Source: a phage. Taken from it: a stretch of DNA of 52,133 bases. Location: sequence record OZ470597.1. One strand, given 5' to 3'. The translations under genes were made by a program, and so were the position numbers. Of this stretch, positions 29,063-34,864 are shown piece by piece. The number at the start of each line of letters is the position of its first letter. Position 1 is the first letter of the stretch. A model generated the notes under the pieces. That model searched no databases. It was given only the letters and a program-made list of their open reading frames with translations, and was not told the DNA's origin.

Positions 29063-29536
29063 TTAGCAATTAGTGCTTTCAGGTTTATACAGGAATCCGC
29101 CAGGTTCATAATCTGACATTCTTACCACTCGCAACATTTCACGCTTATCACATCTCTTTGTGAGCGGTTTGCCATTGGAATCAAATCGCAGATCTGGACG
29201 GCAGAATGAAGCTCGATAGCCTTGACAGCCATACTTTTTGTAATCGTTATGCACCTTTTGAGCGCCAGCGGCTGAAATCATACCGCGAACACGCCACTGA
29301 TTTACGGTTTGCTGGCTAACGTTAAGACGTTTTGCCATTGCTGACACGCTTCCGTAATACTCAATAAGGATGTCAAGTCGCGCTTTTAGTCCGGCGCGCA
29401 CTTCATCTTTTAAAACATAGTATCCTGTAGGGCGCTTGCGCTTTTTCTTATCTTTACCCCGTCGAGTTCCGTTATTGCCATTAATTGTGCGCTTGTCAAT
29501 CTTGCCTGTTGATACTGCGATTCGCTGTTCTTTCAT
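29063..29536 (-). CDS. HTH-domain DNA-binding protein (putative transcriptional regulator)
   Basis: 157 aa; basic N-terminus and helix-turn-helix SVSAMAKRLNVSQQTVNQW; divergent from helicase gene. Confidence 0.55.
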   Translation of the reverse strand: MKEQRIAVSTGKIDKRTINGNNGTRRGKDKKKRKRPTGYYVLKDEVRAGLKARLDILIEYYGSVSAMAKRLNVSQQTVNQWRVRGMISAAGAQKVHNDYKKYGCQGYRASFCRPDLRFDSNGKPLTKRCDKREMLRVVRMSDYEPGGFLYKPESTNC

Positions 29537-29625: not shown

Positions 29626-31665
29626 ATGATTCCAAACATTGAAAAGCAAATATCAGCACTTGGTGAAGCGGTAATTAAATCCATTCAGGAGCGTTTCACT
29701 GTTGGCGAGATTGTGCCTTACCCTTACCAGTGCGTTGCATACGCTGAGATCGCAAAGCGTATGAAAAATTATGAGCATCCATTCTTTGTTAAAGCGTCCG
29801 TATCGGCTGGCAAAACATTGATGTTTGCAATGGTTGCTCACCAGTGCCGGAAAATGGGCTTAAAAATGATGGTTCTTGCTCGCCAAGCTGAGATTGTGGA
29901 TCAAGATTCTGAAGAGATAACAAATCTTGGCGTGCCGAACTCAATCTATTGCGCAGGGCTGAAGACAAAGAGCGCATACTTTCCGATCGTTGTTGGTTCT
30001 GAGGGAACTGTAGTTAATGGACTCTTTAAAGCGCTTAGCGACTATGTTCCTCACGTTATCGGGATTGACGAGTGTCACCAGGTGGATTGGGAAGACCTTG
30101 CCGACGCAATAGAGAAAGACGAGTCATTTTTACAAATGACGACAAAGAAAGGCGAAAAAGTACCAAATCCAGATTATGACGTAGCGAGCGATAACGAATG
30201 CGAAGAGTTCCTGATTGGTGAGGATGGCTTGCCAATGGAGGGAACAGGCCGCACACAATACACTGTCATTATTATGGAAATGATGCGCCGTTGCCGGAAA
30301 ACATATGGTCATGAACTACGCATATTTGGCATGACTGGATCAGAGTTTCGCGGTGTAGTCCCAATACTGGTAGAAGATAAAAAGCAAAAAGGATTCTGGC
30401 GTGAGCAGGTTACTAATATTGACACCAACTACCTGATCAAGTTCGGATCTGTTGTTCCGACTAATTTTGGCGACGTTGGCGATCTCGGGTATGACCTTTC
30501 AGAGTTTGAGGCATCAAGCGAGGATGGCGTTGCAGACTTTGACGCTAAAACGCTTCGCAGGATGGAACAAAAAATTCATGAAGAAGCGACCATGACAAAG
30601 CGCATCATGGCGAAAGTGCACGAGATATGTAAAAACCGTAACGGCGTACTTGTGACATGTGCAGGCGAAAGGCACTGTAAAGAGGCAGCGGCAGCATTGC
30701 CACCTGGAACGACTTACAGGATCATTACTGGTAAGACTGGCGATAACCAGCGCAAGGAGTGGTTGAAGGAGGCATACGAAGGGAAGGTAAAATACATCTT
30801 CCAGGTTCAGGCGCTAACAACTGGCGTTAACGTGCCTTTTTGGGATACGTCGGTTATATTGCGCAAGATTGGATCTCTTACGTTGCTGATTCAGCTTTTA
30901 GGGCGCGGAATGCGACTACTTAAGAAGTGGCATAAGGAGCAAGGATTCCAGAAAGATGATCATCTCGTCATGGATTTTTCAGGAACGATGGACGAGTTAG
31001 GGGAACTTTATTTTGATCCGATACTTGAACAGGCGCAACACAAGAAGCGATTCAGGAACGGTAAAGATCCGAAGCCTTGTCCTATTTGTGGAACTCTTAA
31101 CAGCTATTATGCTCGTCGTTGTATGCACGTAGACGAAAACGACAACAGATGCGAGTGGTTCTTTAAATTCAGGACATGTGATGATCAGATTGACCCGCGC
31201 ACTAAAAAGATTATTCATCGCGGTTGCGGCACGAAGAATGATATTGCGGCCAGGGTATGCAGACATTGCGACATGTCATTAATTGACCCTAACGAGAAGT
31301 TAAGCGGAAAGCACTACACAAAAAACGACTGGTTCAAGGTGCAATCTTTCTCGGTTGACATGACGAAAAACCAGAAAGGGATAATATTTAATTATGAGCT
31401 TTCCGATGGCATAGACACTTTCAGGGCGAGAGAGATATTTTTCCCTGAATCTGAAAGCCAAATTTGCCGCGCAAAATGGCGAAGCGTTGCCCTTAAGCAC
31501 ATACCAGATCGCCGCATCGCTGGTATGGTGGCGAGCTATCGCAATGCGCGTAAAATCATGCAATATGTGAATCACATCATGCCGCCATCGCGCGTGACTC
31601 ACCGCAAGACTAGCAAGGGCGAAGATAATTTGTACAAAAAGGAATTTAATTATGGCAATGACTGA
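29626..31665 (+). CDS. SF2 DEAD/DEAH-box ATP-dependent helicase
   Basis: Walker A SAGKT and DECH box; start set at ATG 29626, downstream of the conserved promoter at 29550-29592. Confidence 0.8.
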   Translation: MIPNIEKQISALGEAVIKSIQERFTVGEIVPYPYQCVAYAEIAKRMKNYEHPFFVKASVSAGKTLMFAMVAHQCRKMGLKMMVLARQAEIVDQDSEEITNLGVPNSIYCAGLKTKSAYFPIVVGSEGTVVNGLFKALSDYVPHVIGIDECHQVDWEDLADAIEKDESFLQMTTKKGEKVPNPDYDVASDNECEEFLIGEDGLPMEGTGRTQYTVIIMEMMRRCRKTYGHELRIFGMTGSEFRGVVPILVEDKKQKGFWREQVTNIDTNYLIKFGSVVPTNFGDVGDLGYDLSEFEASSEDGVADFDAKTLRRMEQKIHEEATMTKRIMAKVHEICKNRNGVLVTCAGERHCKEAAAALPPGTTYRIITGKTGDNQRKEWLKEAYEGKVKYIFQVQALTTGVNVPFWDTSVILRKIGSLTLLIQLLGRGMRLLKKWHKEQGFQKDDHLVMDFSGTMDELGELYFDPILEQAQHKKRFRNGKDPKPCPICGTLNSYYARRCMHVDENDNRCEWFFKFRTCDDQIDPRTKKIIHRGCGTKNDIAARVCRHCDMSLIDPNEKLSGKHYTKNDWFKVQSFSVDMTKNQKGIIFNYELSDGIDTFRAREIFFPESESQICRAKWRSVALKHIPDRRIAGMVASYRNARKIMQYVNHIMPPSRVTHRKTSKGEDNLYKKEFNYGND

Positions 31666-32071
31666 TAAAGGCGATTATCTGGAGTTTTACGAAAGAGATC
31701 CGACAGATACGCTAAAAGAGGAATCGCACCAGATCGGGGCGTTTCAATGGTTGACTTATGCTCATCCTGAATTACTGGCATGGCATACGAAAAACGAGGG
31801 CGACAAGGGGATCGCCACCGCAATGATGGATCAGCAAGCTGGGCTTGTTAAGGGCGTAAGTGATTTTATCATCCTGATTGGATTAAAAGGTCGTTACCCG
31901 TTCGCGGCAATTGAGATGAAGCGCGTCAATAAGTCCGGCAAGGGTAAGGCTTCACCAGTCAGCAAGGACCAAAAAGCCTTCTTGCGTCGTGTGCGTGAGC
32001 TTGGCGGATTCGCTGCCGTAACATACGGATATAAGCAATTCATGATCGCTGTAGAATACATGATGAAATAG
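31652..32071 (+). CDS. VRR-NUC domain nuclease
   Basis: 139 aa; PD-(D/E)XK-type SDFIILI...AAIEMKR motif typical of VRR-NUC. Confidence 0.6.
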   Translation: MAMTDKGDYLEFYERDPTDTLKEESHQIGAFQWLTYAHPELLAWHTKNEGDKGIATAMMDQQAGLVKGVSDFIILIGLKGRYPFAAIEMKRVNKSGKGKASPVSKDQKAFLRRVRELGGFAAVTYGYKQFMIAVEYMMK

Positions 32072-32851: not shown

Positions 32852-33091
32852 ATGCAGAAAGAAAGAAGCGTTTATTTAAATGAAACTGGAGAGTGGTTGT
32901 TATTTCGCGCTATGGTTTGCGAGGCGCTTGATAAAAACGATTTCATAAAACCGCTATTAGGTTGCGATCCGTGGGAATTTACAAGCGCGCTTGACATGAG
33001 CTTCGAGGAAACAAGAAAACTACCGCTTGAAAAATGGCATGAGCAGATCGGTAAAGACTTGCAAGAGTTTTACGAATCAGCATCAAAATAG
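32852..33091 (+). CDS. hypothetical protein
   Basis: ATG 32852 (the listed ORF start 32765 overlaps dam); 79 aa; stop TAG lies inside the next conserved promoter element. Confidence 0.45.
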   Translation: MQKERSVYLNETGEWLLFRAMVCEALDKNDFIKPLLGCDPWEFTSALDMSFEETRKLPLEKWHEQIGKDLQEFYESASK

Positions 33092-33131
33092 CACTTTTTG
33101 TTAAAACGCCCGGCCTTGTGTCGGGCATAAT
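33088..33131 (+). promoter_or_regulatory. conserved-element promoter
   Basis: ATAGCACTTTTTGTTAAAAC 33088-33107 overlapping stop TAG; spacer hairpin GCCCGGCCTTGTGTCGGGC; -10 CATAAT 33126-33131. Confidence 0.55.
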
Positions 33132-33163: not shown

Positions 33164-33343
33164 ATGGTTGTTTACGATCCACGCGCTTTTAAAATTGCTC
33201 AAGAAGTTTCACGCGAATCTGTTGCTGGCGGTTCGGTTAACGGCTATCAGTTTGATTGGTCGGCAGCAATGACCTTGCTTAAGGTTGCATATGGTCACGC
33301 GCCAATTGAAACAGCGGAGGAATATTATAAGCATGAAGGTTGA
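33164..33343 (+). CDS. hypothetical small protein
   Basis: 59 aa ORF with AGAGGA RBS downstream of promoter 33088-33131. Confidence 0.3.
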   Translation: MVVYDPRAFKIAQEVSRESVAGGSVNGYQFDWSAAMTLLKVAYGHAPIETAEEYYKHEG

Positions 33344-33575
33344 GCAAGGTAGGCAGGCTGTATGGGATCACGCAAAGGAATGCGGGATCGCAGAAGACAT
33401 ATCCAGGATAGCGAAATATTTTGATATTGCTGACATAAGCATTATCAGCGGCGACAAAATGACATTTCTCAATGAACGCCCGCGCAAGATGCATCGCGTC
33501 CCAGCAATACCAACAAAGATTGATTTCAAAGAGGCTATGGCGAAAATTCGCGAGCCGCGCAAATACTACAAATGA
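33333..33575 (+). CDS. hypothetical protein
   Basis: ATG 33333 with GGAGG RBS; 80 aa. Confidence 0.4.
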   Translation: MKVEQGRQAVWDHAKECGIAEDISRIAKYFDIADISIISGDKMTFLNERPRKMHRVPAIPTKIDFKEAMAKIREPRKYYK

Positions 33576-33674
33576 GGATTATTATCATGTGGCGTTTGTT
33601 ACTTTTGCCCTTACCTGTTATGATGGCGATCTCTATTGTATACGTTGTCATAATGAGATAAGGAGAATTTTTTG

Positions 33675-34790
33675 ATGAAGCAAATCAAAATCACAGATGA
33701 ACAATTTATCAATGAGCGCAAGCAGGGAAAGACATATAAGCAGATCGCTAATGAGTATGGCATGAACGTTCGAAGCATTGAGCGACGCGCGGCACGATTA
33801 GCAAAGCAGGGTAAAGTTACAACCATCGGATCACCTGGTTTTGGTGTTACTGGAGAATCAAAGCTAATTGATAAAGATGGCAATGTGGTTATGACATGGA
33901 TTAAGACAAGCAAAGACCGCGAACAGTTAGAAGCATTAATGCATGCCGCTATGGATGCATTTAGCGAAGAAGTTCCGCGACTTGATCCGCAGCCAGAATC
34001 ACAAAAGGATTATAGCGAGACGTTATCACTGTATCCGATCTTTGACATGCACTTGGGCGCAATGGCGCATAAGCATGAATGCGGCGAGAATTGGGATACA
34101 GCAACAGCAGAGCGCGTAATGAATAATTTCATTGATTATTCCATCCAGTGCGCACCTGATAGTGAGAATGCTGTTTTGCTGATTGGCGGTGATATGCTTC
34201 ACAGTGACGGACTGGAAGCGGTAACACCTGCAAGCGGTCACGTATTGGATCAAGATAGTCGATACGCAAAACTTGTTTATGTTGCCATCCGGTCAGTGCG
34301 TCGAGCAATTACAAAGCTGTTATCAAAACACAAAAACGTCGAGATTCAGATCATTGAAGGCAACCACGACCAAAGCGGCATGATCTGGTTGCGCGCAGCA
34401 ATGGCGGCAGCATATGAGAATGAGCCGCGAGTGCATGTTGATGTGTCTCCGCGAGTAGTTCATCACACACAATATGGCAAAACGTTCCTGGCATACCATC
34501 ACGGGCATACTATCCGCAAACCTGAAACATTGCTAATGATGTGCGCGGCAGACTGGCGCGAAGACTTCGGCAATTCAAAAATGATGTATGCTCACGTAGG
34601 GCACTGGCATCATCAAACAGTAACTGAAACAAGCCTGGGCATTGTTGAAGTGCATAGCACTATGGCGGCAAAAGATGCATATGCGGCGCGCGGTGGATGG
34701 CGTTCTCGTCGCCGTGCGGCTGTTATTGTTTATGATAAAGAATACGGAGAAGTAGGGCGATTTATGCATTATCCAGAAATGTCTGGTTGA
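33675..34790 (+). CDS. metallophosphoesterase (calcineurin-like) with N-terminal HTH region
   Basis: phosphoesterase motifs GDMLH, GNHD, GHWHH; N-terminal TYKQIANEYGMNVRSIERRAARL helix-turn-helix. Confidence 0.65.
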   Translation: MKQIKITDEQFINERKQGKTYKQIANEYGMNVRSIERRAARLAKQGKVTTIGSPGFGVTGESKLIDKDGNVVMTWIKTSKDREQLEALMHAAMDAFSEEVPRLDPQPESQKDYSETLSLYPIFDMHLGAMAHKHECGENWDTATAERVMNNFIDYSIQCAPDSENAVLLIGGDMLHSDGLEAVTPASGHVLDQDSRYAKLVYVAIRSVRRAITKLLSKHKNVEIQIIEGNHDQSGMIWLRAAMAAAYENEPRVHVDVSPRVVHHTQYGKTFLAYHHGHTIRKPETLLMMCAADWREDFGNSKMMYAHVGHWHHQTVTETSLGIVEVHSTMAAKDAYAARGGWRSRRRAAVIVYDKEYGEVGRFMHYPEMSG

Positions 34791-34833: not shown

Positions 34834-34864
34834 GGGCGTGGCATTTTGCTTCGCCCTTTTTTTA
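34834..34864 (+). terminator. intrinsic terminator upstream of lysis cassette
   Basis: GGGCG...CGCCC hairpin followed by TTTTTTT. Confidence 0.6.

Follow-up and report, generated by a model that had tools for sequence, protein, structure and literature searches.

A Helix-Turn-Helix Metallophosphoesterase of a T1-Like Phage: Invariant Active Site, Wide Distribution and a Predicted DNA Phosphodiesterase Activity

Introduction

The Mre11/SbcD proteins and the PdeM-type nucleases are among the described metallophosphoesterases (MPEs) with which the phage protein considered here is compared. Mre11/SbcD have the same five motifs as the phage protein, including D-x-H-L-G, G-D-x-x-H and G-N-H-D. PdeM and the P. 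putida 'Nuclease MPE' (PDB 6nvo) are small stand-alone nucleases that can do without a Rad50 partner, and their gene lies beside a helicase gene in a DNA-repair cluster. The phage protein is encoded on the plus strand at 33675..34790 of sequence record OZ470597.1, a T1-like phage DNA of 52,133 nucleotides (hereafter the window), and it joins an N-terminal helix-turn-helix (HTH) domain to an MPE catalytic domain. Our favored interpretation, to which we give roughly an even chance, is that it is a stand-alone DNA phosphodiesterase with two metals, tethered by its HTH and independent of Rad50, whose substrate would be the DNA of the phage or the host.

That such a protein exists is already known. 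Hundreds of genomes carry it under the label phosphoesterase or DNA repair exonuclease. A core gene of T1-like phages, it is named by existing annotation pipelines and is a routine genome feature. The name 'DNA repair exonuclease' is an annotation derived from remote similarity; a very large phage protein family carries it, and no experiment was found that backs it. A function for one member, such as T1 ORF16 or the homolog in BASEL phage JakobBernoulli, would replace this derived name in thousands of records, and the gene concerned is a persistent one in a model family of phages.

Domain Architecture and Active Site

The first-pass annotation of this DNA described an MPE fused to an N-terminal HTH and quoted the motifs GDMLH, GNHD and GHWHH. 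All three are present in the translation, and DMH and HHGH are found in addition, which completes the set of five. The protein is laid out as follows.

33675..34790, plus strand: HTH-MPE coding sequence (371 aa; ATG at 33675, TGA stop at 34788-34790)
33696..33806, plus strand: three-helix HTH domain (predicted helices aa 8-16, 21-28 and 32-44)
33837..33968, plus strand: family-specific β-hairpin (aa 56-65 and 71-80) and helix (aa 82-97), joining the HTH to the catalytic domain in the AlphaFold2 model
34014..34769, plus strand: MPE catalytic domain (aa 114-365)
34044-34052, plus strand: MPE motif I, D124-x-H126 (DMH, aa 124-126)
34188-34202, plus strand: MPE motif II, G172-D173-x-x-H176-x-D178 (GDMLH, aa 172-176)
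34359-34370, plus strand: MPE motif III, G229-N230-H231-D232 (GNHD, aa 229-232)
34497-34508, plus strand: MPE motif IV, H276-G277-H278 (HHGH, aa 275-278)
34599-34613, plus strand: MPE motif V, G309-H310-x-H312 (GHWHH, aa 309-313)

The five motif blocks of the MPE superfamily (DxH, GD, GNH[D/E], H and GHxH) are thus all found, and they are invariant or nearly so in alignments of 42, 126 and 143 sequences. Across the 143 representatives, which share 30-57% identity, D124, H126, D173, N230, H231, H276 and H312 do not vary. A second set of nearly invariant positions is specific to the family (W75, E135, T184, D192, D194, R196, R252 and D334). Comparison with two close relatives gave 28 synonymous to 4 non-synonymous and 29 to 3 codon changes, so the gene is under purifying selection.

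Structure prediction, which the first-pass annotation had proposed as a check, yields both an HTH and an MPE sandwich: the AlphaFold2 model, built from 42 homologs (pLDDT 81, pTM 0.70), runs from the three-helix HTH through a β-hairpin and a helix to the β-sandwich of the MPE fold at residues 114-365. Pfam PF00149 (Metallophos) scores 15.4 bits against a gathering cut-off of 21.5 (E = 0.026), and of the 126 family members just 29 match it at E ≤ 0.01. The family is too divergent for this curated hidden Markov model, and superfamily membership therefore rests on motifs and fold. Both Pfam matches in this protein, to HTH and to MPE, fall below the gathering thresholds and the NCBIfam match falls below its curated cut-off, so that the domain calls depend on the motifs, the predicted fold and the family-wide scans. 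These three lines agree on the fusion of an MPE to an N-terminal HTH, and the modeled fold is securely that of an MPE.

The N-Terminal HTH

The N-terminal domain is a three-helix bundle with a recognition helix, resembling solved tri-helical DNA-binding HTH domains, and is basic (isoelectric point 10.3 for aa 1-50). Pfam matches in this protein are to HTH_28 (E = 0.0026, aa 10-46), Sigma70_r4_2 (E = 0.077) and Sigma70_r4 (E = 0.11), and the NCBIfam model of sigma70-ECF region 4 (TIGR02937) aligns positions 131-159 of its 165 with aa 16-44 (E = 0.0084). Across 126 diverse family members the HTH is matched by HTH_1 (27 members), HTH_8 (18), HTH_50 (16), HTH_23 (12) and HTH_28 (11), and also by Sigma70_r4_2 (12, best 1.5e-9) and GerE (6, best 2.4e-8). 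Pfam, NCBIfam, the AlphaFold2 helices and the family scan thus bear out the sigma-region-4-like HTH proposed from the sequence. Is the protein then a sigma factor? This identity was rejected: the matches are to region-4-like HTHs only, with no region 2, the rest of the protein is an MPE, and the HTH is of the sigma-region-4/LuxR type.

Conservation is lowest in the HTH, with a column mean of approximately 0.3-0.4 against approximately 0.6 in the core. In the hairpin and helix region that follows, alignment A1 shows no variation at G60, S62, W75, K77 and R102; the hairpin-helix piece alone gave no named fold match.

A variable HTH would be expected of a protein that recognizes phage-specific sites, and the domain resembles those of sigma region 4, LuxR/GerE, LysR and Fis-type regulators. 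The protein could accordingly be primarily a transcription factor, for example one that switches on or times the late or lysis genes; its HTH would then bind promoters of the phage and its MPE would serve as an enzymatic or sensory effector. Some depositors label homologs 'transcriptional regulator' or 'Rrf2 family transcriptional regulator', and among many unrelated phages the gene adjoins lysis or late structural operons, as in T1-like phages, Rhodobacter phage RcPutin, a Vibrio phage and temperate myo-/siphovirus-type contigs; in one contig it heads the operon that leads to the terminase gene. We give this explanation a small probability. Complete invariance of the two-metal active site argues for catalysis as the function under selection, and T1-like phages already have a separate Cro/YdaS-like regulator beside the primase gene. 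A search for repeats and inverted repeats around the gene found only short matches at chance level and no repeated operator-like motif, and no transcription activator fused to an MPE is known to us.

Family and Distribution

The protein belongs to PHROG 704 ('DNA repair exonuclease'), with residues 5-370 matching positions 3-389 of the 390 in the profile (E = 8e-151). At the amino acid level it shares 99% identity with a protein of phages Fulano1, damhaus, aaroes and egaa that is annotated 'putative phosphoesterase / DNA repair exonuclease', and its counterpart in T1 is ORF16 (ST16, YP_003929.1). Homologs were found by tblastn in 2,038 phage records, 1,954 of which cover at least 80% of the protein, and an exhaustive HMMER search gave 4,603 clusters (50% identity) at E ≤ 1e-3 and 1,033 at E ≤ 1e-30. 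The family extends over siphovirus-, podovirus- and myovirus-type genomes and prophages. Its members typically combine an HTH with an MPE, most representatives having approximately 170-200 residues before motif II, as here. Most relatives among the matches listed have no precomputed Pfam domain. A search of the PDB with the single protein returned nothing relevant, and no solved structure is a sequence relative.

Some records have unexpected host labels. Approximately 60 'Campylobacter phage' records (e.g., A134, MG065663, 91% protein identity) carry this T1-like coliphage gene, and a protein of 'Streptococcus phage MBBL140' is 78% identical to the phosphoesterase. These host labels look doubtful, and contamination or misassignment is possible.

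The length of the protein also varies among close relatives. The TGA stop at 34788-34790 reads CGA in damhaus (L001 10789-10806) and in most close relatives, and the damhaus-type copies run five codons longer, giving 376 aa rather than the 371 aa of the window. Both lengths occur in public data, e.g., the 371-aa cluster P0011 with 136 members.

A Nuclease or Another Kind of Phosphoesterase?

The first-pass annotation offered a DNA-binding nuclease or phosphatase of replication or recombination, or a regulator with phosphoesterase activity. When the model was compared with the PDB by Foldseek, M. jannaschii Mre11-DNA complexes came first (E = 8.5e-9), with a TM score of only approximately 0.4. 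The fold-match values for individual enzymes and subunits were as follows.

SbcD: 13.6
MJ0936 phosphodiesterase: 13.5
PolD DP1: 13.1
Pol delta B-subunit: 13.0
Mre11: 12.6
LpxH: 12.5

Nucleases rank first, but by a margin over small-molecule phosphodiesterases that is too small for fold scores to decide. Profile searches gave a second view. PdeM, a ligase-associated endonuclease of DNA damage, is the sole curated MPE-type NCBIfam model to recur in the family (26 of 126 members, best 1.6e-5), and SbcD/Mre11 models are absent from the NCBIfam matches listed for these members. Searched against the PDB, the family profiles recovered T. maritima Mre11/SbcD and the P. putida 'Nuclease MPE' as their sole MPE chains, at E of approximately 1, and profiles A1 and A4 recovered HTH matches at E 0.01-1. 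Comparison by hhalign with single-sequence targets (E. coli SbcD, CpdA, YfcE and LpxH) gave probabilities of 0.2-23% over short alignments, with SbcD at 2.8%; a single-sequence target is too weak for these values to rank the subfamilies. The lean towards a nuclease derives from the SbcD, PolD DP1 and Mre11 fold neighbors, the recurrence of PdeM, and the replication and recombination neighborhoods of the gene in T1-like and mEp021-like phages.

Several findings weigh against this interpretation. The PdeM model (TIGR04123) scores 19.9 bits against a cut-off of 150 and matches only around motif III, and the PDB nuclease matches of profiles A1 and A4 are sub-significant (E 0.9-2). Among the family-specific acidic residues E135, D192 and D194 are invariant and D334 is present in at least 90% of representatives, which is not typical of a surface that binds DNA. 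Several other lineages place the gene among lysis or tail genes and not in a replication block. Full-text literature searches gave genome descriptions only, with no biochemical or genetic study of the protein, and the paper on the mEp021 group does not mention the gene. Of the functions originally offered, a DNA-binding nuclease in replication or recombination is still the best-fitting prediction.

The conserved acidic residues are compatible with a small-molecule phosphodiesterase or phosphatase, or a nucleotide-salvage enzyme, in which the HTH only localizes the protein or regulates its own gene. Substrates of such an enzyme might be cyclic or linear nucleotides, nucleotide-sugar diphosphates or 2',3'-cyclic phosphates, and its role might be to supply nucleotides or to destroy a host signaling molecule. 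In Webervirus and Sauletekiovirus the next genes encode a 3'-phosphatase/5'-polynucleotide kinase and a deoxynucleoside monophosphate (dNMP) kinase, and the authors filed all three genes under nucleotide metabolism (PMC8004638, PMC8994998, PMC13164509). The gene also shifts between genome modules as accessory genes do. We nevertheless consider such an enzyme unlikely. Retention of the HTH across thousands of clusters is hard to explain for a soluble enzyme of this kind, sequence searches recover only DNA nucleases among MPE families, and no PADLOC or other defense-related model matches the MPE part. In Drexlerviridae, moreover, the gene is persistent rather than sporadic: it adjoins the lysis cassette in 508 of the 522 genomes of a published survey (PMC13164509).

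Three further identities were tried and dropped. A link to defense or anti-defense found no support in a PADLOC scan of the 126 members, which gave only weak HTH matches to CARF/Csa3/CasR-type regulators. A homing endonuclease was rejected, the gene being syntenic, persistent and under purifying selection. A PPP-type Ser/Thr phosphatase like lambda NinI was also rejected: the signatures of that family are GDxHG and GDxVDRG, and both are absent from the sequence.

Genomic Context in Other Phages

The gene occupies very different neighborhoods. In Drexlerviridae it follows the primase, helicase, VRR-NUC and Dam genes, and in temperate coliphages of the mEp013/mEp021 type, as in E. coli prophages, a homolog with 66% identity lies between replication protein O and the DnaB helicase, near NinB. 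In Webervirus the homolog is followed by a polynucleotide kinase and then a nucleotide kinase (PMC8994998). Other lineages have it in late regions. In Rhodobacter phage RcPutin and two temperate-phage contigs it ends the late operon, after the lysis genes; in the Vibrio phage it has endolysin genes on both sides and precedes an HNH gene and the head genes; and in Jerseyvirus SETP3 it sits with an anti-repressor in a small opposite-strand islet within the tail genes. In SU10-adaptor-type contigs the homolog is inside the tail block, between the tail assembly chaperone or tail fiber and the tail-tip proteins. A scan of viral contigs with alignment A1 returned mostly close relatives and was kept out of the neighborhood statistics.

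Across these phages the gene travels as a self-contained unit, placed sometimes in replication regions and sometimes in late ones. Such mobility weakens a strict reading as a replication protein, and late DNA processing, regulation and virion association remain alongside it.

Virion association would make the protein one that is packaged or ejected and acts on DNA at entry or exit, a role compatible with nuclease chemistry. The homolog gp38 of Pantoea phage AAS23 (Drexlerviridae) was found in purified virions by liquid chromatography-tandem mass spectrometry (PMC8004638), which could reflect carry-over or a true association. The co-orientation of the gene with the tail block of SU10-adaptor-type contigs and its position within the tail region of SETP3 point the same way. 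We see only a very slim chance that the protein is virion-associated in this sense. The virion finding comes from one proteomic detection, made with a very sensitive technique, and the protein is listed as non-structural by its authors (PMC8004638); the SETP3 gene is opposite in strand to the tail genes and accompanied by the anti-repressor; and T1-like and mEp021-like phages keep the gene in replication blocks.

The SU10-adaptor-type arrangement was seen in three independent metagenomic contigs (L008 8001-9191, L010 1776-2942 and L017 7001-8191), in each of which the homolog is co-oriented with the tail genes and is always followed by a conserved protein of approximately 540 aa and a tail-tip protein.

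The Gene and Its Surroundings in the Window

The window is nearly complete as a T1-like genome of Hanrivervirus (Drexlerviridae, Tempevirinae), 97% identical in DNA to Escherichia phage damhaus and to further members of the genus. It appears to be the full phage genome, possibly with terminal repetition. At 52,133 bp it is approximately 1 kb longer than damhaus, the closest complete genome (51,154 bp). The start annotated in damhaus (L001 9676) is the same ATG as that at window position 33675; the open reading frame (ORF) list also has an in-frame TTG at 33672, one codon earlier. The signals around the gene are these.

33596..33624, plus strand: weak sigma-70-like site from a consensus scan, TTGTTA-17-TATGAT with an extended -10 TG, for which no function is claimed
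33660..33665, plus strand: Shine-Dalgarno sequence AAGGAG, 9 nt 5' of the ATG, read from the sequence
34834..34863, plus strand: probable intrinsic terminator, hairpin GGGCGUGGCA-UUU-UGCUUCGCCC followed by U7

The terminator hairpin folds with a centroid energy of -14.6 kcal/mol (z = -2.4 against shuffled sequences) and is kept in sequence in damhaus and phiE31-2. T1 has an annotated rho-independent terminator in the corresponding position after ORF16, and a terminator scan also detects one there. Sigma-70-like sites in the upstream region number 12, against 14.6 expected from shuffles, a chance level, and no equivalent of the site listed above was found upstream of T1 ORF16. No promoter is therefore proposed.

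The phosphoesterase gene is the last of a rightward block of DNA-metabolism genes, beside which the primase and a Cro/YdaS-like regulator are encoded on the minus strand. The plus-strand order is a ResIII/Helicase_C helicase, VRR-NUC, Dam methylase, three small ORFs, the phosphoesterase, the terminator, and then the lysis cassette of holin, endolysin and spanin. Elsewhere the window encodes a RecE-like exonuclease VIII, Erf, SSB, a second helicase, a second methylase and a dNMP kinase. Coordinates of the genes and features outside the phosphoesterase gene are as follows.

2-523: small terminase gene, at the window start
523-2091: large terminase gene, at the window start
29063-29536, minus strand: Cro/YdaS-type HTH protein (157 aa), partly overlapping the primase gene and divergent from the helicase operon
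31652-32071: VRR-NUC nuclease gene, overlapping the end of the 701-aa helicase gene by 14 nt
32852-33091: first small conserved ORF between Dam and the phosphoesterase
33108-33126: terminator-like hairpin after the first small ORF
33164-33343: second small conserved ORF between Dam and the phosphoesterase
33333-33575: third small conserved ORF between Dam and the phosphoesterase

The VRR-NUC product is likely a junction-resolving nuclease of the same operon as the phosphoesterase, and the Cro/YdaS-type protein is a candidate for the early regulation of this part of the genome, in which the phosphoesterase gene lies. Two of the three small ORFs match PHROG 2676 and PHROG 2817. The third is labeled 'HNH endonuclease motif protein' in phiE31-2, a name that has no family-model support in the window.

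A Possible Mechanism

If the phosphoesterase is an HTH-tethered DNA phosphodiesterase, how might it work? The small basic HTH would tether the enzyme to double-stranded DNA, and the β-hairpin and helix would connect it to a catalytic core of the Mre11/SbcD/PdeM kind. With two metals, probably Mn2+, this core would act as a phosphodiesterase on DNA, cutting or trimming DNA ends, single-stranded regions or secondary structures in the absence of a Rad50/SbcC ATPase. Its most likely role would be the processing of replicating or recombining phage DNA, or the breakdown of host DNA, before packaging. The DNA substrate, the metal dependence and the biological role are all inferred. Host-DNA degradation is a classical function of T1; no accessible text links it to this gene, and it is put forward here as a possible role only.

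A bolder extension is that the family forms an unrecognized class of sequence-targeted, Rad50-independent, Mre11-like nucleases needed late by thousands of tailed-phage lineages. This seems distinctly unlikely. If it were true, a late nuclease could trim branched or hairpinned replication products or destroy host DNA before packaging, the variable HTH would direct it to phage-specific sites, and the enzyme might even travel in the virion.

Comparison With Known Systems

The nearest relatives are the other members of PHROG 704, which also holds the 'putative phosphoesterase' of damhaus, vojen, egaa and NBD2. As in T1 ORF16, the gene precedes holin, endolysin and spanin and is followed by a terminator. 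Apart from the 371 or 376 aa that result from TGA or CGA, there is no difference of substance between the protein and these relatives.

Archaeal PolD DP1 and the eukaryotic polymerase B-subunits likewise have an N-terminal module before the MPE core, and one public record names a homolog 'DNA polymerase II small subunit'. In contrast to DP1, no OB fold is predicted in the phage protein, which has just the β-hairpin and helix, and the DNA-metabolism genes identified in the window and in the T1 annotation include no partner DNA polymerase. Catalytic residues that the eukaryotic B-subunits have lost are invariant in the phage family.

The P. putida 'Nuclease MPE' (6nvo) is a weak PDB profile match to the family (E 1.3). 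PdeM comprises approximately 215 aa and has no HTH, whereas the phage protein has 371 aa and an HTH. The gene has no ATP-dependent ligase or Lhr-type helicase as a neighbor; the helicase, VRR-NUC and Dam genes stand there instead, and with its score below the PdeM cut-off the protein is not placed in that family.

Mre11/SbcD (PDB 4tug, 7dog, 3av0 and 6s6v) are the best fold matches, and DNA phosphodiesterase chemistry like theirs is the most plausible predicted activity of the phage protein. Of the 319 residues of SbcD, 186 align; the phage protein lacks the capping domain and ends with the MPE sandwich, and neither Mre11 nor SbcD has the N-terminal HTH and β-hairpin module. Neither the window ORFs nor the annotations of damhaus and T1 include a gene for a Rad50/SbcC ATPase. 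A significant sequence-profile match, a capping domain and a cognate Rad50/SbcC are three defining features of Mre11/SbcD; all are missing here, and the protein is therefore not filed in that family. It may nevertheless work like Mre11/SbcD, or like a stand-alone nuclease of the PdeM/MPE type.

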